A DNA stretch of 50,086 nt from NCBI GenBank assembly GCA_965649115.1, contig CBFGJN010000006.1, positions 1 to 50,086 on the forward strand, given 5' to 3'. Shown here one piece after another: positions 16,089 to 37,460 of this stretch. Made by a program: the position numbers and the translations under genes. Under the pieces are notes generated by a model. It did no database searches and was not told the DNA's origin. It saw nothing but the letters and a program-made list of their open reading frames with translations. The stretch comes from a candidate division WOR-3 bacterium. Its GTDB lineage: Bacteria; Hydrothermota; Hydrothermia; LBFQ01; DSFT01. Numbering within the stretch: position 1 is the stretch's first letter; every line of letters begins with the position of its first letter.

Positions 16089-16331
16089 AAAAAATAATAT
16101 TAAAATCAACAAAATAAAATTAATTACTTGTAAAATCAATAAAATTCTTATCCAAAATAAGATAATGTTAAATTTTTCATTAAATTGGGACAAAATTTTA
16201 TCAAGCTTAATTTCAACACCTTTTATTATTTCTAATAAATTATCAGTTTTTTTATCTTCTTGAAATTTTGTTGCAACTTGAACTGCACTTGGCAATATAC
16301 TTATTAAAAAATCAATAATTTTTTTAAACAT
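16077..16331 (-). CDS. Small hypothetical protein with a C-terminal transmembrane helix
   Basis: Overlaps the gcvPA stop; hydrophobic C-terminus. Confidence 0.7.
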   Translation of the reverse strand: MFKKIIDFLISILPSAVQVATKFQEDKKTDNLLEIIKGVEIKLDKILSQFNEKFNIILFWIRILLILQVINFILLILILFFRGK

Positions 16332-17643
16332 CTTTTAAAATTTCAGCTAATTCATCAATTTCTTCTTTCTTTCTTTTTTCACTAACAGCTATTAATAAGT
16401 AGTTATCTCCAAGCAATCTAACCTCTGGACCTACTAAGAATCCTTTTTTAGCACATTCAAAAATAACTTCTTTTGCTTTTTTATTTGTTTTTATTACAAA
16501 TTCCCTAAATGTTGGACTATCAAACACAAGTTTATGTTTTAACTTCTCTTTTAAATACTCGGCCTTGTTAAAAATAAGTTTTGCTAATTTTTTTAGCCCT
16601 TCTTTACCCATTAATGTTAAATATATACAAACAGCAGTTGCTATTAATTGTTGGTTAGTACATATATTACTAGTTGCTTTTGCTCTCCTTATGTGTTGTT
16701 CTCTTGCTTGAAGTGTTGTTACAAAACCTCTCCTTCCATATTTATCTTGTGTCAATGCAACAATTCTACCTGGCATTTGTCTAATATATTCCTTTCTTGA
16801 AGTAAATAGTCCAACATAAGGACCACCAAATGACAATGGAATACCAAGCGATTGTCCTTCACCAACAGCAATATCGCTACCGTACTCACCTGGTGGCGAT
16901 AAAATAGCTAAACTAACAGGGTCAAAAACACTTATCAAAAGAACATCCTTTGATTTTACAATATCCCTAATTTCAAAAACTTCCTCAACAATTCCAAAAT
17001 AATTTGGATTTTGAATTACAACACTTGCTGTCATATCATCAATTAAACTCCTTAATTGGCTTAAATCAATCCTTCCATAATTATCAAAATTAACTTCTAC
17101 TATATTAGCTTCTATATTTTGTAAATAAGTTTTTAAAACCTCCTTATAAGATGGATTTAAGTTTTTAGGAATTATAACTTTATATTTGTTTTTTATCCTA
17201 AAACTCATCAAAACTGCTTCAGCAAGTGCAGTTGCTCCATCATATACTGAAGCATTTGAAACATCCATCTTTGTAAGCTCACATATTAGTGATTGAAATT
17301 CAAACATTACTTGAAGTGTCCCTTGGCTTACCTCAGGTTGATAAGGTGTATAAGCGGTATAAAATTCACTTCTTAATAGTAATTGACCTAGTGAAGAAGG
17401 TGTAAAACAATCATAAGCTCCACCACCTGCAAAAATTTTAAAAATTTTATTTAGATTTCCAAGATTTTCAATATATTCTCTTGCTTCCTCTTCGCTCAGG
17501 GCAGGAGGTAGTTTAAAATCATCAAGTTCTAAATTTTTTGGAATTTTTGATTTATAAAAAACTTCTAAATCATGATATCCAAGATAATTTAAAATTTCCT
17601 TAATTTCATTATCACTAAGTCCAAAATAGTGCCTTGCAAACAA
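16324..17643 (-). CDS. gcvPA: Glycine dehydrogenase (decarboxylating) subunit 1, TTG start
   Basis: FYTAYTPYQPEVSQG, FGGP and REQHIRRAKATSNICTN. Confidence 0.95.
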   Translation of the reverse strand: MFARHYFGLSDNEIKEILNYLGYHDLEVFYKSKIPKNLELDDFKLPPALSEEEAREYIENLGNLNKIFKIFAGGGAYDCFTPSSLGQLLLRSEFYTAYTPYQPEVSQGTLQVMFEFQSLICELTKMDVSNASVYDGATALAEAVLMSFRIKNKYKVIIPKNLNPSYKEVLKTYLQNIEANIVEVNFDNYGRIDLSQLRSLIDDMTASVVIQNPNYFGIVEEVFEIRDIVKSKDVLLISVFDPVSLAILSPPGEYGSDIAVGEGQSLGIPLSFGGPYVGLFTSRKEYIRQMPGRIVALTQDKYGRRGFVTTLQAREQHIRRAKATSNICTNQQLIATAVCIYLTLMGKEGLKKLAKLIFNKAEYLKEKLKHKLVFDSPTFREFVIKTNKKAKEVIFECAKKGFLVGPEVRLLGDNYLLIAVSEKRKKEEIDELAEILKDV

Positions 17644-17644
17644 G

Positions 17645-17717
17645 AGCCGTTGGCCGGACTCGAACCGGCAACCTGGGCATTACGAATGCCCCGCTCTGCC
17701 AATTGAGCTACAACGGC
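17645..17717 (-). tRNA. tRNA-Thr(CGT), CCA not encoded
   Basis: Acceptor stem GCCGTTG/CAACGGC; anticodon arm GGGCA-TTCGTAA-TGCCC; GTTCGAG T-loop. Confidence 0.95.
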
Positions 17718-17753
17718 AAGTTCTAAATTTTAAAGTATTAAAAAGTTTTCTTG

Positions 17754-19202: not shown

Positions 19203-19444
19203 AATACTATAAAATTAGTGAAGTTTCAAAATTAACAGGTGTTCCTCCCGAAACGATAAGATATTGGGAAAAAAGGGGTCTCATAAAACCTGATAGAAAA
19301 TTTGGTAATAGAAGATTTTATACCTACAAAACAATTAAAAAAATCATTGAAATTGTTGAAAGTAAAGAAAAAACGAAGATAAAATCATCAAAAACTATAA
19401 AAGAAGAATTAAAGGAAATTTTGAAAATTCTAAAAGATATTTAA
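19199..19444 (+). CDS. MerR-family HTH protein
   Basis: YKISEVS..TIRYWE..GNRRFY. Confidence 0.88.
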   Translation: MKYYKISEVSKLTGVPPETIRYWEKRGLIKPDRKFGNRRFYTYKTIKKIIEIVESKEKTKIKSSKTIKEELKEILKILKDI

Positions 19445-20058
19445 TGATGTTAAGGGGTTTATATGTAATTACTGACGAATTTCTAATTAAAGATGAAGAA
19501 CTTGAAGAGAAAGTTGAACTTGCTATCATTGGAGGTGCAAAAATTGTTCAATTGAGAGATAAAATTTTTGATTATAATAAGAGATTTGAAAGAGCAAAGA
19601 GAATTTTGAAAATTACAAAAAAATATAATGCTTTGCTAATTATAAATGATGACCCAATTTTAGCAAGAGAAGTTAATGCTGATGGTGTTCATCTCGGAAA
19701 AGAGGAAGATTATTATTTTAGTTTTGCAAGAGAGATTTTAAGGAATAAAATTATTGGTGTTTCCTGTTATGGAGACTTAGAACGAGCTATTAAATTTCAA
19801 AATTTAGGAGCTGATTATGTAGCTTTTGGATCAGTTTTCCCAACAAAAACAAAAAAATCTGATGTTTTGAAAACCATTGAAATTTTTAAATGGGCTAAAA
19901 GCTTACTGAAAATTCCAATTGTAGCAATTGGTGGGATAAATTATGAAAATGCTCATATCTTAATTAAAATGGGCGTTGATATGATAGCAGTTGTATCAGC
20001 AGTATTTTCAGGTGATGTTTATTCCAATGCAAAAAAATTAAGTTCAATTTTTAGATAA
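19444..20058 (+). CDS. thiE: Thiamine-phosphate synthase
   Basis: VQLRDK, IINDD, GVHLG, TKTK and AIGGI. Confidence 0.95.
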   Translation: MMLRGLYVITDEFLIKDEELEEKVELAIIGGAKIVQLRDKIFDYNKRFERAKRILKITKKYNALLIINDDPILAREVNADGVHLGKEEDYYFSFAREILRNKIIGVSCYGDLERAIKFQNLGADYVAFGSVFPTKTKKSDVLKTIEIFKWAKSLLKIPIVAIGGINYENAHILIKMGVDMIAVVSAVFSGDVYSNAKKLSSIFR

Positions 20059-21327
20059 TCTAATTAATTTCATAATTTTTTGTTTATATTCGTGAAAATC
20101 AACTTCAATTGAATGTCTTGGCGTATTTAGATATCTTTTAAATTGTTCTTTTATTTGATTTTCTACAATTTCAGATAAGTTATTTGGTAGCTTATAATCG
20201 CCTTTTAAAAATTTTGAAATAAGTTTTGCTTGAAGTTCAGAAAGAACCCAAAGACATCCATCAGGTTGAATGAGACCAACAAAAAATATATCCTTAAAAT
20301 TAGGATGAAATATATTTAAAAATAACTTAACTTTACAATCGTCAAGAAATGTTTTCTTAAAATTTTCATCAAAGAAAGGGAAACTTATTTTATAACCTGT
20401 TGCTAAAATTATCGTTTCATACTCTTCACTAAATCCATTTTTAAATATAACACTATAACCATCAAATTTGACAATTTCAGGTCTAATTTTAATTCTGCCA
20501 TGCTTTATATAATAAACAAGCTCACTATTCACAATAGGATGTGTTTGAAACAAGTCATGATCTGGTTTAGGCATTCCATACTTCCTTAAATCTCCTACAA
20601 TCACTTTAAGAAGTAATTTAATTAATAGTTTTCTTACATTCTTCGGAAGAAACTGAATCCTTGAATGAAAATAATCAGAAGGAATTCCAAATAAAGCAAA
20701 TTTTGGAATAAAATAATAACCTCTTCTAATACTCATAGCAGTATGTCTATTAATTCTACAAATATCAACTGCAATATCACAGGCAGAATTACCTGCTCCA
20801 ACAATTAATACTTTTTTTCCCTTAAAAGGAATTGGATTTTTATAATAATGAGAATGAATTATTTCACCTTTAAATTCTCCTTCAAACTTTGGAATATATG
20901 GATCCCAATGATGTCCATTACAAACAATAACAACATTGTAATTTTCAACTTTTCCGTCTTTTAAAACAATTTCATAATTATAATCACTAATTCTTCTTAC
21001 TTTTATAACTTCACTGTTAAATCTAATGTAATTATAAAGGTTAAAGTTTTTAGCATAATTTTTAAAGTATTCAAGAACAAGCCAATGTGATGGATAATCT
21101 GGGTAATTATCAGGCATAGGAAAATCTGAAAAACTTGACATTTTCTTTGAAGTTATTATATTTAAAGTTTCATAAGCAGAAGAATGATTATTATTTTCAG
21201 ATAAGTACCAATTACCTCCTATATCATCGTTTTTTTCATAAACAACAATATCTTTAAATCCATTTTCCAAAAGTGTTTTTAATGTAGTTAAACCACTTGG
21301 ACCTGCTCCTATTATACAAATTTTCAT
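20044..21327 (-). CDS. Flavin-containing monooxygenase (class B FMO)
   Basis: GAGPSG, FxGxxxHSxxYK and GAGNSA. The real start is MKICIIG at 21327; the ORF-track extension is tRNA sequence. Confidence 0.92.
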   Translation of the reverse strand: MKICIIGAGPSGLTTLKTLLENGFKDIVVYEKNDDIGGNWYLSENNNHSSAYETLNIITSKKMSSFSDFPMPDNYPDYPSHWLVLEYFKNYAKNFNLYNYIRFNSEVIKVRRISDYNYEIVLKDGKVENYNVVIVCNGHHWDPYIPKFEGEFKGEIIHSHYYKNPIPFKGKKVLIVGAGNSACDIAVDICRINRHTAMSIRRGYYFIPKFALFGIPSDYFHSRIQFLPKNVRKLLIKLLLKVIVGDLRKYGMPKPDHDLFQTHPIVNSELVYYIKHGRIKIRPEIVKFDGYSVIFKNGFSEEYETIILATGYKISFPFFDENFKKTFLDDCKVKLFLNIFHPNFKDIFFVGLIQPDGCLWVLSELQAKLISKFLKGDYKLPNNLSEIVENQIKEQFKRYLNTPRHSIEVDFHEYKQKIMKLIRLSKN

Positions 21328-21330
21328 AGA

Positions 21331-21404
21331 TGTGCCCGGGCGGACTTGAACCGCCAACCTTCTGCTCCGGAGGCAGACGCTCTATCCAATTGAGCTACGG
21401 GCAC
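21331..21404 (-). tRNA. tRNA-Arg(CCG), CCA not encoded
   Basis: Acceptor stem GTGCCCG/CGGGCAC; anticodon arm TCTGC-CTCCGGA-GCAGA; GTTCAAG T-loop. Confidence 0.95.
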
Positions 21405-23197
21405 TAAAATATAATTTTTTGAACATTTTGTTTATATTTTAAGATATATATACCTCTTTTAAAACTTTGACATCCATTAAAACTTTTCTTCAAAAGCAAG
21501 CCATTTACTGAGTAAATATCAAATGGTTTAATTGAACAAATTTGGTTATCTTTTAAGTAGTAGAATTTTTCAATACTTTCTGAGAGTTTTGTTGTTTGAT
21601 AAATTGGTAAGATAATATGAGATGGATATTGGGCATTATGATAAACTCTATTATTGGCTATAAGTTTATCTGGATCATTTCTTTTAAATGGACCTCCATT
21701 ATTTGGATTGGCTTCAAATCTTGGATAATTTGCTGAAGAGATTATAACCATTAATCTATGACCTGGTAAAAATGCCCAAGCTGTTGTTCCTACTCTTATA
21801 AGAACAGAATCAATTTGATTAGGATTTAATAGAACTTCTTGATTAAAACCATACCTATACCTTGCTTTTATAATTCCATCAGTGACCAAAATTTTTCTTC
21901 CATCAGGAAAAACATCAACAACTCTAACTGAAAAATCAGTATCAAGTCTATTAGACGAAATAAATAATTTTGCATAAATTGTTCCTATAACAAGTAATGT
22001 ATCTGTTAAAACTGGTGTTTGAAATACAACAACATCACTTCTATTTATAAGTGGGCTTTGGTCTTTTGGTCCTGCTTGAGTTGGATCTAATAATTCATTA
22101 CCACCTATTGTAGGAGTAGGATCATAAGGATTGTAAATGTATTCAGAATAACCATTATTTTCACTTGGATAATTTGGACTAATTAAATTTCCATTCCTTA
22201 AATAAAGATTCCTATAATAAATACCTCTTGGTGGAAATGTATCTGAGTAAACCCACTCGTTCAATCCAATTATATAAAATTTAACAGGTGGAAAACTATT
22301 TATGTAATTACAAGCTGATTGATTTCCTGCCAAATGGCAATCGTACCAGCTTCCAATAGCCATATATAAATCATTATTAAAATCAAGAAAGTCTATATAA
22401 GCGTTTGGGAAGCTTAAATCACCTTGATTTGCTTGACCAAATCCGAGATGTGTCCAAGGACCAATTATTAATTTTTGTTTATTTTTAGCACCAGGCATTC
22501 CGTAAAATTGAAGTTTATTAAATATATCAACTTGACTTTCAATGAAAATATCAAACCAACCTCCAAAATGAAGCATAGGTATATTTACATAATTTAGTCT
22601 TTCTTCTAAATTTAAAATTTTCCACATACTATCATAACTTGGATGATTGGCAATTGAATCTATTAAATATCCAACATTTAATCCATTTAACCAATTTTCT
22701 ACAAGCTGTTTTCTAAATTCTCCTCCTTGAAAAGCCGCATAATGATACAAACTATGAGCACCTACGAATGGAACAGCACATTTATAATTTGGATGACCAG
22801 TTCCTGCAAGTAAGTACTGAGTTATTCCCATTGCAGAGAACCAAGAACCACAAATACTATCTCTTGCCCAGCTTTGATTTATAATCCAATTCACAGCATC
22901 ATAACCATCTTGTAATTCGCCCCAGCTGTCAGTTAGAAATACAGAAGGCTGCCCTTCACTTCCTTGAAATCCTCTTAAACTTTGAACAACAAGAACATAT
23001 CTTTTATAGTCAGTTATGAAAGGTTTAAAATAATTAAGTCCAACTGCATTCCTATCATAAGGGGTTCTAACAAGGATAACCAAATATGGTGGAAAGAATG
23101 GCCAAGGCTTACATACCTCAGTTGCTAATTTAACACCATCCCTCATGGGCACCATTACCAAATCACAAGAATAGTTAATTAATAAACTTAAAACCAT
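21404..23197 (-). CDS. CocE/NonD-family serine hydrolase with T9SS-like C-terminal domain
   Basis: MRDGVKL, RTPY, GWFD, IGPWTH and SSANYPRF; C-terminus IYSVNG..GIYILK. Confidence 0.9.
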   Translation of the reverse strand: MVLSLLINYSCDLVMVPMRDGVKLATEVCKPWPFFPPYLVILVRTPYDRNAVGLNYFKPFITDYKRYVLVVQSLRGFQGSEGQPSVFLTDSWGELQDGYDAVNWIINQSWARDSICGSWFSAMGITQYLLAGTGHPNYKCAVPFVGAHSLYHYAAFQGGEFRKQLVENWLNGLNVGYLIDSIANHPSYDSMWKILNLEERLNYVNIPMLHFGGWFDIFIESQVDIFNKLQFYGMPGAKNKQKLIIGPWTHLGFGQANQGDLSFPNAYIDFLDFNNDLYMAIGSWYDCHLAGNQSACNYINSFPPVKFYIIGLNEWVYSDTFPPRGIYYRNLYLRNGNLISPNYPSENNGYSEYIYNPYDPTPTIGGNELLDPTQAGPKDQSPLINRSDVVVFQTPVLTDTLLVIGTIYAKLFISSNRLDTDFSVRVVDVFPDGRKILVTDGIIKARYRYGFNQEVLLNPNQIDSVLIRVGTTAWAFLPGHRLMVIISSANYPRFEANPNNGGPFKRNDPDKLIANNRVYHNAQYPSHIILPIYQTTKLSESIEKFYYLKDNQICSIKPFDIYSVNGLLLKKSFNGCQSFKRGIYILKYKQNVQKIIF

Positions 23198-23199
23198 AG

Positions 23200-24672
23200 C
23201 TATCTAATTATAATTTTACTTATTTTTGAATTAAATTTTATAATAAAAATCCCATTTTTTAAGTTTAAAATTTGCCCTTTCTTAATTTTTGATTTTTTAA
23301 GTAATTTACCATCAACTGTCCAAATTTCAAAGTTTCCATCTGAAAGAAATTTCAAAGTATTTCCAATCAAAATAAAACCTGAATTCCTAAAACTTTCATA
23401 TATATTTACAGATTTATTCCATTTTATAACAACAATATCTGAGTTATTAGTAGTGGAATATGAGATACCGCAAGCGTACAGAGTATCATTTATATCTTTA
23501 AAATCAACAGCAATATCCAAAAGACCATTGTAATCGTACTGATAGCTATAAACTGTATCACCATTTATTGGTTCAATTTTATAAATAACTAAATCTCCTT
23601 TTGTAAATGAATTTTCAATTACGCCGCCTACAAGAATTTTGTTATCAATTGTTCTTCTAATTTTTAGAAAATAGTCATTGGAATTTGGAACCTTATTATA
23701 TGTTTTTTGCCAAACAACATTTAATAATTGATTTAACTTGACTAAATAAGCATCATTTAAAGTAAATCCATTATTCAAAAATCCAACAGCATAAATATCA
23801 TAACCAATTGTAATTAAGTCATTTAAAACATCTAAACTACTACCCGCACCATTTTTAGTCCATTCAGCAATAATTGAACCATCATTATTATTTATCATTC
23901 CAACGTAGAAATCATTATTTTTCCAACCTCCTACAATAATATCACCATTTAACAACTTATCAAGTGCGTATATTCTTGAATTATCACTATAAGTTATACC
24001 CCATATTTGACTACCATCATTTATACTAAATTTTTGAACTTCACCTCTATCTCCATGCCCAACAGCTATAACTGAGTTATTATCTAATGACTTAATACTT
24101 TTGTACATAAAACCACCAGGAATTGTCCTAAAAATTCTCTGTCCGGTTGCTCTATTAACTTTTACAATATATCTTGCAGAATTGCTAAAACTTCCATCAT
24201 ACCATATTTCCCAATCACTACCAGCAGCATAGTAATTATTATCAGGTCCTATAATTAAATCAGAAAATCCATATCTATCAACTCTAATAGGCCAACCTGA
24301 ACCACAACTTCCATTATCATCATCTATATATTGCCATATTATATTTCCATTATCACTTCTAAATTTTGCTATATAACCACAAGGTGTTGAACTATTTGAA
24401 AAGGGATAGACTGTTCCAGCAACTGCTAAATTGCTATCTAATGGATCAATTCTAATAACTTTTATACTGTTTCTACCATAACCACTAAAACTTAAAATTT
24501 TCTGCCACTTTATTGTTCCATCTAAACCATTTAATCTTGCTAAAAATATATTATTACCATAACTACCACCGATAATTACATCATTTCTAAAAACTTCAAT
24601 ACTATAACATTTGTCTAATGTATCTAAACTTCCATCTATCCTAACTATCCAATTTAAAAGAAAAATTAACAT
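23200..24672 (-). CDS. Exported beta-propeller repeat protein with T9SS-like C-terminal domain
   Basis: Repeated GxxxW blades; IWTVDGKLL..GIFIIK. Confidence 0.75.
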   Translation of the reverse strand: MLIFLLNWIVRIDGSLDTLDKCYSIEVFRNDVIIGGSYGNNIFLARLNGLDGTIKWQKILSFSGYGRNSIKVIRIDPLDSNLAVAGTVYPFSNSSTPCGYIAKFRSDNGNIIWQYIDDDNGSCGSGWPIRVDRYGFSDLIIGPDNNYYAAGSDWEIWYDGSFSNSARYIVKVNRATGQRIFRTIPGGFMYKSIKSLDNNSVIAVGHGDRGEVQKFSINDGSQIWGITYSDNSRIYALDKLLNGDIIVGGWKNNDFYVGMINNNDGSIIAEWTKNGAGSSLDVLNDLITIGYDIYAVGFLNNGFTLNDAYLVKLNQLLNVVWQKTYNKVPNSNDYFLKIRRTIDNKILVGGVIENSFTKGDLVIYKIEPINGDTVYSYQYDYNGLLDIAVDFKDINDTLYACGISYSTTNNSDIVVIKWNKSVNIYESFRNSGFILIGNTLKFLSDGNFEIWTVDGKLLKKSKIKKGQILNLKNGIFIIKFNSKISKIIIR

Positions 24673-24709
24673 GGTTTGAAAATTATAAAGGATAAAAAAA
24701 TATGATCAT

Positions 24710-36445: not shown

Positions 36446-36519
36446 GCGCCCATAGCTCAACTGGATAGAGCGGCGGACTACGAATCCGCAGGTTGGGGGT
36501 TCAAGTCCCTCTGGGCGCG
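36446..36519 (+). tRNA. tRNA-Arg(ACG), CCA not encoded
   Basis: Acceptor stem GCGCCCA/TGGGCGC; anticodon arm GCGGA-CTACGAA-TCCGC; GTTCAAG T-loop. Confidence 0.95.
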
Positions 36520-37460
36520 TTTAAAATATCTTCCTTCTTTATAGGATAAGTTCCAATATGTCTAATAACAATACTTGCACAAAAGTTAGCAAATTTCAAA
36601 ATTTTTTCAATTTCTAAATTACACAAAATACCAAATCCCAAAACCGCAACCACAGTATCACCTGCTCCCGAAACATCATATACTTCACTTTCATAAGTTG
36701 GAACATGTAAAACCTTATATTTATCAATATAACTTAAACCCTTTTCCGAACGAGTAATCACTATACTTTCAAAATTAAATTTTTCAATGGCTAATTTTCC
36801 CATTTTCTCTAAAATATAATTCTCATTTTCAATTGTTTCATTTAAACCTTCTGATAATTCTTTAACATTTGGTGTTATCATATTAGCATTTCTATATTTG
36901 TTCCAATTCTTACCTTTTGGGTCAATAATTGTAAATTTTGACTTACTTATAATGAATTGAGAAATTTTTTCAGAGATTAAACCTTTGTTATAATCAGAAA
37001 TTATTGTTAAATCATAATCATCTATAACATTTTCCAAAATTCCTAAAATTCTTTGTTCCAAATTTTTATCAATAGGATTATTATTTTCAAAATCAATTCT
37101 AATTAAATGTTGGTTTTTTGAAACAACTCTTATTTTTGTTGTTGTAATTCTACTATCTCTAATTATAAAATTCGTTTTAATTTTGTTGTTTTCAAATAAT
37201 TTTAATAATTCATATCCATTCTCATCATCTCCAATAATTCCAATAACATCAACCTCAATTCCTAAATTTTTCAAGTTTAAAGCAGTATTTCCAGCACCTC
37301 CAATCCTATTTTCTATTCTTTTTACATTAACAACAGGAACAGGGGCTTCAGGTGATATTCTATCAACATTTCCAAAAAAGTACTTATCAAGCATTAAATC
37401 ACCAATAACTAATGCTTTCTTGTTTGGAGGATTGTTTAGAAACTCAATTATCTCTTCCAT
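36501..37460 (-). CDS. rfaE1: D-glycero-beta-D-manno-heptose-7-phosphate kinase (HldE kinase domain)
   Basis: GDLMLD, RISPEAPVPVV, SDYNKG and DVSGAGDT. Confidence 0.93.
   Translation of the reverse strand: MEEIIEFLNNPPNKKALVIGDLMLDKYFFGNVDRISPEAPVPVVNVKRIENRIGGAGNTALNLKNLGIEVDVIGIIGDDENGYELLKLFENNKIKTNFIIRDSRITTTKIRVVSKNQHLIRIDFENNNPIDKNLEQRILGILENVIDDYDLTIISDYNKGLISEKISQFIISKSKFTIIDPKGKNWNKYRNANMITPNVKELSEGLNETIENENYILEKMGKLAIEKFNFESIVITRSEKGLSYIDKYKVLHVPTYESEVYDVSGAGDTVVAVLGFGILCNLEIEKILKFANFCASIVIRHIGTYPIKKEDILNAPRGT

Follow-up and report, generated by a model that had tools for sequence, protein, structure and literature searches.

The window analysed here, a 50,086-nucleotide (nt) stretch that constitutes contig C6 of the genome of a candidate division WOR-3 bacterium, carries on its minus strand a tRNA-Arg(CCG) gene wedged between a CocE-type hydrolase gene and a flavin monooxygenase (FMO) gene. 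The source genome (G000) comprises 1.85 Mb in 99 contigs with 27.6% G+C, contains 45 tRNAs and a tmRNA, and is an estimated 94.5% complete. tRNAs were called with ARAGORN, the call at this locus being checked against Rfam RF00005; protein families were assigned from Pfam and TIGR profile scores relative to their cut-offs; and genes and start codons were called by our own open reading frame (ORF) heuristics, a caveat that attaches to every start count given below.

An earlier note on this DNA had described a minus-strand tRNA-Arg that takes its first base from the upstream stop codon, lacks CCA and ends 3 nt before the next ATG; every element of that observation proved correct. ARAGORN and Rfam agree on a 74-nt tRNA-Arg(CCG) that scores 70.8 bits against RF00005 (gathering score 29, E 1.7e-14) and forms a cloverleaf with a regular 7-bp acceptor stem, conserved D and T arms and a discriminator A at 21331. 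Read along the minus strand, the region runs ...AAA ATT ATA TTT TA|G TGCCCGTAGC...GGGCACA TCT ATG AAA ATT, the letters directly at the 5' junction being ATT ATA TTT TA|G TGCCCG. Same-strand coding sequence overlaps the tRNA by 1 nt upstream, where the G of the hydrolase TAG is tRNA position +1, and resumes 3 nt downstream, where TCT separates the discriminator from the FMO ATG (21327-21325). Like all 45 tRNAs of the genome (0/45), this tRNA has no encoded CCA, and it is the only CCG tRNA among them. The alignment of the FMO ORF to the Pfam FMO-like family begins at residue 2 (285.7 bits) and a GAGPSG motif occupies residues 7-12, which indicates that the ATG behind the tRNA is the true start codon.

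The tRNA sits within a longer unit, in which a promoter is followed by a gene of 490 amino acids (aa), the hydrolase gene, the tRNA and FMO, and which is bounded by a convergent thiE gene (Table 1). The hydrolase ATG comes directly after the stop codon of the 490-aa gene.

Table 1. Coordinates of the features discussed, in the window unless another contig is named
Feature	Position	Strand	Basis
Promoter motif CTTTATAATTT	24680..24690	-	Position weight matrix (PWM), 19.9 bits; first-gene ATG 18 nt from the motif's first base
First cistron, 490 aa, no confident family	23200..24672	-	ORF; PQQ_2 sub-threshold, 19.4 bits (cut-off 27.6)
CocE/NonD-type S15 hydrolase, 597 aa	21404..23197	-	Pfam Peptidase_S15 130 bits and PepX_C 104 bits
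Weak promoter-like TCTTAAAATAT in CocE 3' end, 40 nt before tRNA +1	21434..21444	-	PWM -2.6 bits; judged chance
Stop codon TAG, its G (21404) being tRNA +1	21404..21406	-	Sequence, ORF end, tRNA start
tRNA-Arg(CCG), CCA-less, no promoter of its own	21331..21404	-	ARAGORN; Rfam 70.8 bits; PWM scan
Spacer TCT, 3 nt, discriminator to FMO ATG	21328..21330	-	Sequence
Flavin monooxygenase (FMO-like), 427 aa, lineage-specific insertion	20044..21327	-	Pfam 285.7 bits
Convergent thiE (TMP-TENI)	19444..20058	+	Pfam 189.6 bits; 3' end overlaps FMO 3' end by 15 nt
tRNA-Thr(CGT)	17645-17717	-	Own promoter, 16.5 bits at 17735
GDC-P gene	16324-17643	-	Aligned from residue 5
tRNA-Arg(ACG)	36446-36519	+
pfkB-family kinase	36501-37460	-
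HARP gene, 179 aa	C2:47350-47889	-	Pfam PIN_5, PF08745 150.8 bits (cut-off 27), positions 2-199/205; TIGR03875 150.1 bits (cut-off 95.3)
Unit containing the HARP gene	C2:46379-48375	-
UPF0173-type metallo-beta-lactamase (MBL) hydrolase	C12:33295-33792

Promoters and start codons around the tRNAs of the genome

The motif tatGCTTTAAAATTTtcaaact precedes nearly all tRNAs of G000. Its core, CTTTAWAAT, occurs 1,088 times in the genome, and 383 of these copies are followed, at exactly 15-20 nt counted from the C, by the start of an ORF of at least 80 codons; the PWM, rebuilt on 551 sites of this kind, shows hardly any variation across CTTTAAAATTT and no evident -35 element (examples in the window are at 133, 24690(-), 36231(-) and 46463). 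As the motif also stands ahead of untranslated genes, namely 32 tRNAs (16-29 nt before +1) and the tmRNA, where it lies about 27 nt further upstream, it behaves as a promoter acting on transcription and not as a translation signal. Taking TAAAAT as the -10 element puts the expected transcript start ~0-5 nt ahead of the start codon, so the 383 genes at this distance imply leaders of ~0-5 nt and a mostly leaderless transcriptome, in support of the earlier suggestion that a 3-nt leader would suit the style of this genome. Among 1,203 ORFs of at least 200 codons, 383 are promoter-proximal, 229 have a Shine-Dalgarno (SD)-like word and 591 have neither. No 16S rRNA, which was sought for its anti-SD end, is assembled in G000, so that SD use can be judged only from the words upstream of starts; none was found in the 20 bases upstream of FMO.

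Scoring the 200 nt upstream of each of the 45 tRNAs with this PWM divides the set. Promoters serve 38 of them, 32 through a match of their own (15.5-23.8 bits) and six by lying downstream of such a tRNA in a cluster. The remaining seven have no match above 2.4 bits: Arg-CCG (-2.6 bits), Gly-CCC, Val-CAC, Pro-CGG, Ser-CGA, Glu-CTC and Ala-CGC; as a set they are spread over C6, C9, C12, C16, C31, C39 and C47. All seven carry C at position 34 (C34), which amounts to 7/13 C34 tRNAs (Met and Trp excluded) versus 0/32 others (Fisher p = 3.8e-5, a value limited by the classes having been defined after the data were seen). The CGG codon read by tRNA-Arg(CCG) is the least used of the 13 C34 codons, at 0.12 per 1,000 codons; over all 13 tRNAs the rank trend with usage is weak (one-sided Mann-Whitney p = 0.09).

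Same-strand operons enclose six of the seven promoter-less tRNAs; the other one, Ala-CGC, lies close to a contig end, at a distance of 290 nt. The flanking genes are real (an E1 dehydrogenase, a PALP enzyme, OmpH and L31 among others), and a downstream start follows the tRNA by 1-5 nt in 5/6 operon-internal cases. On the upstream side, the stop codon falls at tRNA +1 for Arg-CCG and Ser-CGA (TA + G1); for Gly-CCC, Val-CAC and Pro-CGG the upstream ORF enters the tRNA by 10 nt and stops at U8-A9-G10; and for Glu-CTC the stop, a TAA, precedes the tRNA by 5 nt. TAG stands at positions 8-10 of 29/45 tRNAs, and TA|G1 and U8A9G10 share one reading frame. tRNA neighbourhoods were read completely in four relatives (G002, G005, G009 and G020), which are mutually related and are not independent cases. 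The promoter-less set also lacks promoters in the sister species G002 (six recovered; Val-CAC not recovered), and in G005, from another genus of the same family, all tRNAs have a promoter motif. The locus is two-sided, with a promoter-less tRNA that shares a base with the upstream stop and is also one of a class of promoter-less C34 tRNAs.

Where, then, would the tRNA-Arg(CCG) transcript start? The nearest upstream minus-strand match of at least 6 bits is the 19.9-bit motif at 24690, 3.3 kb from the tRNA, and no other minus-strand match at that threshold lies between 24690 and 21039; this distance makes co-transcription followed by excision the best reading, and co-transcription alone agrees with the promoter map. 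A weak promoter of the tRNA's own within the final 60 nt of CocE (TTTAAA, a 16-nt gap and TAAAAT at 21441-21436) would instead produce a pre-tRNA with a leader of ~24 nt, place FMO on the same short transcript and make the CocE message independent of tRNA processing. A generic sigma-70 scan does list TTTAAA-16-TAAAAT at 21463-21436 with 9/12 matches, the hexamer is kept in G002, and long distances from motif to +1 are tolerated elsewhere, as at the tmRNA. The same scan, however, returns 14 sites against 12.5 +/- 3.5 in shuffled sequence; the genome PWM gives -2.6 bits, when scores of at least 0 bits arise at 2.2e-3 per position (about one expected in 190 positions) and all 32 solo tRNA promoters reach at least 15.5 bits; the letters are forced by the conserved hydrolase C-terminal residues I-L-K-Y; and a relative in DNA run X9 alters the third base of the 11-mer (place 21442). 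On the strength of PWM, shuffles and coding constraint we rejected the CocE-internal site as a chance match, and we regard a separate tRNA promoter here as unlikely. The earlier note's claim that there is no room for a promoter upstream of the tRNA and FMO is supported by the PWM, which found no convincing match for a promoter inside cocE, one of the features that the note had set against its own proposal.

The downstream half of the arrangement follows a genome-wide rule. At 25/39 tRNA-unit ends a start codon (ORF of at least 70 codons) lies within -2..+5 nt of the discriminator, 16 of these starts being ATG and nine TTG or GTG; the same test on 40,000 random positions gives 2.95% for any start and 1.5% for ATG. 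This tabulation, which the earlier note had called for, speaks against ordinary spacing at all the other tRNAs and indicates that the anatomy of the locus is real and non-random. The abutting genes include the housekeeping gene for L31 and, by reading of translated first residues, glmS and L33. A further case, beyond the 25, is tRNA-Trp, where an ATG 3 nt behind the tRNA opens a short ORF, below the length threshold, whose first residues look like those of ribosomal protein L33. Position 74, next to the discriminator, holds a pyrimidine in 43/45 tRNAs, the three bases 3' of the discriminator are strongly U/C-rich, and G never occurs at positions 74-75, making the position-74 pyrimidine a possible determinant for a specific 3' cut. 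At position -1, 27 of the 45 tRNAs have U and 15 have A.

Relatives show the downstream pattern to different degrees. A start lies within 5 nt after 22/42 tRNAs in G002 and after 5/47 in G005 (one ATG), where many next genes have their own promoter right after the tRNA. In G009, from a sister family, the figure is 26/46, possibly inflated by 22 TTG codons that lie in T-rich trailers; in this genome Arg-CCG is served by a promoter of its own, with an ATG 3 nt behind the tRNA. In G020, from another family of the class, the count is 2/46.

Other tRNA junctions in G000 are similarly tight. Same-strand ORFs end inside a tRNA in 7/45 cases, including Arg-CCT and Leu-GAG, which have their own promoters, and convergent ORFs do so in 3/45. 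Within the window, a TTG one base after the discriminator of the promoter-served tRNA-Thr(CGT) opens the gene for the glycine-cleavage P-protein (GDC-P), and a convergent gene for a pfkB-family kinase reaches 18 nt into the 3' part of tRNA-Arg(ACG), its stop codon TGA being the reverse complement of the T-loop TCA. Convergent ORF ends inside a tRNA are also seen at tRNA-Ala(CGC) on C47 and where G002 thiE meets tRNA-Arg(CCG).

Origin of the shared stop and of the flavin monooxygenase gene

The tRNA-Arg(CCG) sequence is identical (74/74) in the sister species G002, G003 and G004, and in G001 it differs by a paired G-C to A-U change in the T stem; identity in three sister species together with a compensatory change in a fourth indicates that the tRNA is under selection. 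Its surroundings are less constant. G002, whose DNA is 88% identical, has the same hydrolase-TA|G-tRNA junction and no FMO, and in G001, G003 and G004 the same tRNA lies at other places, directly downstream of promoter-type motifs that are clear in G001 (aCTTTAAAATTTTTTTA) and G003 (gCTTTAAAATTAT) and less clear in G004.

The hydrolases of G003, G004 and four more distant relatives all end at the homologous residue, with a TAA, TGA or TAG of their own. We therefore rejected the idea that the CocE C-terminus was extended into a former tRNA promoter: the ORF has not been extended, and it is the tRNA that came to sit exactly at the native stop. A parallel is found at Ser-CGA, where the upstream gene of G002 ends in TAA followed by a 7-nt spacer and that of G000 in TA|G, indicating that TA|G arose by loss of the spacer. 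Judged from these comparisons, the shared base appears to be a stop borrowed through spacer loss in a very compact genome, and not a signal.

On the other side of the tRNA, alignment with G002 shows FMO as a 1,272-nt indel with its start 2 nt behind the tRNA, and the convergent thiE of G002 finishes within the 3' end of tRNA-Arg(CCG). The gene is present in 1/41 genomes of the class, and the closest relatives among species representatives (14 loci) are at most 45% identical, so that no donor could be named, the best of the 14 loci being 45% identical. Its G+C content matches that of the genome (27.7% over 20001-22000). FMO thus looks like a recent single-gene gain, equipped with neither a promoter nor an SD-like word, that obeys the spacing rule of the tRNAs.

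Processing enzymes and a proposed route of expression

Excision of the tRNA from a longer transcript calls for a cut on each side, which the earlier note had assigned to RNase P and RNase Z. For the 5' cut, the assignment would stand in altered form: a gene for a protein-only RNase P, HARP, is present (Table 1), and the ribozyme form was not found. RNase P RNA (RF00010) and rnpA (PF00825) were detected in 0/7 genomes of the family; in the other families of the class the RNA is found in 33/34 genomes and rnpA in 32/34. HARP occurs in 7/7 family genomes, six times over the cut-off and once, in G003, cut by a contig end.

The RNase Z half of the assignment was not borne out. The best TIGR02651 score in G000 is 25.8 bits against a cut-off of 293, and no protein passes that cut-off among 41 relatives (0/41), the seven family genomes included. 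Only two MBL-fold proteins occur in the genus, and both were discarded as RNase Z candidates, the 300-aa protein on C25 being a generic MBL and the 219-aa protein on C12 a UPF0173-type hydrolase (PRK00685, 291 bits). RNase E/G and RNase J were not found in G000 and RNase Y is present, on C43, leaving RNase Y and the UPF0173-type hydrolase as the sole endonuclease-like candidates noticed for the 3' cut. HARP itself was not proposed for this role: the only 3' activity published for it, reported in PMC12217051, is in vitro cleavage of 3' trailers by HARP dodecamers at a distance of 13 nt or more from nt 72, an activity that would remove the FMO start codon.

Enzymes for the later steps are partly in place. 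Two class-II nucleotidyltransferases are encoded, one of 286 aa and one of 460 aa that includes an HDIG domain; their matches to models for CCA-adding, A-adding and PcnB enzymes all fall short of the cut-offs. The earlier suggestion to look for rnz, cca and a poly(A) polymerase thus ends with no rnz over the cut-off, two CCA-type enzymes, and no dedicated poly(A) polymerase separable from these two. Both tmRNA and SmpB (181 bits) are present.

Taken together, these data lead us to favour, as the probable arrangement, a passenger tRNA cut out of a shared operon transcript, with CocE made from uncut RNA and FMO from a nearly leaderless message. tRNA-Arg(CCG) would be an internal passenger of the protein operon driven from the promoter at 24690, a low supply of tRNA by read-through from mRNA being enough because CGG is the genome's rarest sense codon. 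HARP would cut the polycistronic transcript at tRNA +1, a further endonuclease would cut at or just after the discriminator, and one or both of the class-II nucleotidyltransferases would then add CCA. The 3' cut would leave an FMO message with a ~3-nt leader, equivalent to the leaderless messages made from promoters, and could be how a recently gained gene with neither promoter nor SD is expressed at all. Because the CocE stop codon would lose its G to the 5' cut, only transcripts that are still uncut would allow CocE to be finished, and the cut upstream fragments, being non-stop, would be handled by tmRNA-SmpB and decay. Excision of the tRNA would in this way probably end one message and start the next, much as in mitochondria. 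The layout of the locus, the missing promoter, the pattern across the genome and the set of enzymes are direct observations; co-transcription, the two cuts and what becomes of the two messages are inferred from them.

Beside rescue by tmRNA, the earlier note had raised polyadenylation to UAA for the upstream mRNA ending in UA. In a true mitochondrial style, a poly(A) polymerase would in this way allow processed CocE messages, too, to be translated to their natural end. The cut would leave exactly UA at Arg-CCG and Ser-CGA, and the two PolyA_pol-family genes match pcnB models at 80.7 and 115 bits (below the cut-off of 305.65). At Gly-CCC, Val-CAC and Pro-CGG, however, the ORFs would end in ...GA or equivalent, and an A-tail would add lysine codons and no stop, so that tailing could rebuild UAA only at the two TA|G cases and not at the three in which the ORF runs 10 nt into the tRNA. 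The G002 Ser-CGA gene keeps its own TAA, so TA|G there is a recent spacer loss; since CCA is encoded in 0/45 tRNAs, its addition must occupy one, and perhaps both, of the nucleotidyltransferases; and bacterial A-tails usually mark RNA for decay. The CocE stop codon is, moreover, complete before cleavage, in DNA and precursor alike. Stop completion is therefore unlikely as a design, and we consider it highly improbable as an account of this locus.

Among 21 sequencing runs listed there is one RNA library, a metatranscriptome, the contigs of which cover 6/30 bins of the stretch. One of its contigs, 443 nt long and 100% identical to 21399-21841, contains the CocE 3' end and 6 nt of the tRNA, a weak hint that is compatible with a precursor crossing the predicted 5' cut; a second piece of 255 nt covers 22869-23123. 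A contig of DNA origin from a different study, belonging to a relative with 94% identity, likewise extends out of the hydrolase into the tRNA. In DNA runs X1 and X5 we noticed a form in which 30 other letters link 21427 to 21055 and whose depth exceeds that of the form in the window; either a strain variant lacking the tRNA and the start of FMO or an artefact of assembly might account for it, and it is not interpretable and was not used.

Several points weigh against the excision of a passenger tRNA as we propose it. FMO occurs in G000 alone, so its expression is not backed by conservation, and the search for a 3' cutter returned no RNase Z, RNase E/G or RNase J; HARP, by its published 3' activity, would destroy the FMO start. 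The RNA data are assembled contigs at a depth of about 3-3.5 with possible DNA carry-over, show no transcript ends and include no contig on FMO, a gap that, like that on the first gene, is uninformative at 6/30 bins covered. The nine TTG or GTG codons among the 25 abutting starts depend on our own ORF heuristics, as do the start counts in general. The PWM was seeded on a strong motif and would let weak or differently shaped promoters escape, and there is indeed a TAAAAT hexamer 31 nt ahead of the tRNA.

Some of the same points favour a reading in which the junctions have no role in expression. They would be scars of deletion bias joined by a chance insertion of FMO, whose expression would be low or absent, and unspecific cuts in FMO followed by exonuclease trimming would produce the 3' end of the tRNA. 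The presence of FMO in one of 41 related genomes, the distance of its closest relatives, the lack of an RNA contig on the gene, the lack of a specific 3' endonuclease among the enzymes found, and the plain compaction evident where ORF ends overlap tRNAs on the same strand (7/45) or convergently (3/45) all fit this account. Against it, the FMO ORF is intact and full-length, and its 3-nt spacing obeys the rule seen at 25/39 unit ends, with 16 ATG starts where 1.5% is expected at random; the abutting genes include the housekeeping genes named above; position 74 is a pyrimidine in 43/45 tRNAs; and abutments are kept after 22/42 tRNAs in the sister species G002. We accordingly give it little credence and retain excision from a shared transcript as the preferred reading.

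A broader proposal joins these strands, and we offer it tentatively, being more inclined to doubt than to accept it as a whole. In a family that relies on HARP and lacks a recognizable RNase Z, tRNA excision might be a general maker of translatable leaderless messages, with the rare-codon C34 tRNAs expressed solely as passengers of protein operons. As part of the same tentative scheme, maturation of the tRNA and completion of the upstream protein might be mutually exclusive for each transcript, forming a built-in post-transcriptional switch, and the 3' endonuclease might read the discriminator together with the position-74 pyrimidine. Were all this true, new genes such as FMO could be switched on by landing behind a tRNA.

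Comparison with known systems

Punctuation of transcripts by tRNAs is reportedly a feature of animal mitochondria, described by Ojala, Montoya and Attardi in 1981. As in that system, the tRNA abuts coding sequence on both sides, its excision would define mRNA ends, the downstream messages would be almost leaderless, and the upstream stop is incomplete without bases beyond the cut. Unlike mitochondria, G000 is a free-living bacterium with hundreds of promoters in which only 6-7 of 45 tRNAs are internal; its stop codon is complete in DNA and precursor, and three sister cases could not be repaired by an A-tail; and its 5' enzyme would be HARP rather than PRORP/MRPP, no homologue of RNase Z (ELAC2) having been found. 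The mitochondrial analogy thus holds for the layout and probably for the logic, and fails for RNase Z and for stop completion by A-tails.

Mixed tRNA-mRNA operons are known from E. coli, as in thrU-tyrU-glyT-thrT-tufB, secG-leuU and metY-nusA-infB, where tRNA and mRNA also share one transcript that is split by RNase P and other endonucleases. These operons have spacers, SD-led translation, encoded CCA and RNase E, whereas G000 has 0-5 nt spacing, stop-base sharing, CCA in 0/45 tRNAs and no RNase E/G that we could find. A likeness for the 3' side is Propionibacterium acnes, which, from the portions of PMC3848588 that we draw on, has no obvious tRNase Z and yet cuts its CCA-less tRNAs 3' by an endonuclease. 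P. acnes resembles G000 in combining CCA-less tRNAs with the lack of RNase Z, and leaderless mRNAs are common there (PMC3848588, same portions); gene abutment or stop sharing is not reported in those portions.

In full-text literature searches, conducted mostly at abstract level with supplements excluded, we did not find tRNA-abutting starts or tRNA-shared stops described in free-living bacteria. If the proposed reading is true, tRNA-punctuated expression, commonly seen as a mitochondrial hallmark, would be found also in a free-living bacterium that has ordinary promoters as well, where it would be a product of genome compaction combined with leaderless translation. The locus would then be a natural system for asking how ribosomes use messages whose 5' end comes from tRNA processing, and how a cell handles messages that lose their stop codon when a tRNA matures. 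It also indicates a missing enzyme, as 45/45 tRNAs are CCA-less and RNase Z, RNase E/G and RNase J were not found.

For the 5' enzyme, a close counterpart is Aquifex aeolicus, which, as far as excerpts of PMC12439589 and PMC12217051 go, is likewise a thermophile with a compact genome, has HARP but neither RNase P RNA nor rnpA, and carries split or multiple CCA-type nucleotidyltransferases. The excerpts also record differences: Aquifex encodes CCA in 36/44 tRNA genes and has RNase G (PMC12217051), as opposed to 0/45 and no RNase E/G found in G000, and position -1 is A in 38/44 Aquifex tRNAs, in contrast to the predominance of U in G000. Bacterial HARP is surveyed in the excerpted text of PMC12153264 only in Aquificales, a few gammaproteobacterial genera and Thermodesulfovibrionales, and the lineage of the G000 family is not among the HARP-bearing bacterial orders listed there. 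By its gene content, the family seems to join Aquificaceae as the second lineage of bacteria dependent on HARP only, an apparent replacement that bears on why RNA-based RNase P is given up.

The HARP gene of G000 has a tRNA-associated setting of its own. It lies on the minus strand of contig C2 in a unit that consists of a promoter, tRNA-Lys(UUU), 2 nt, the ATG of a 136-aa lipoprotein-like gene, and HARP as third cistron, joined to the preceding gene by a TAATG overlap; the gene after HARP is, by reading of its first residues, that of an Obg-like GTPase. The tRNA-trimming enzyme HARP is thus itself encoded on a tRNA-led message.

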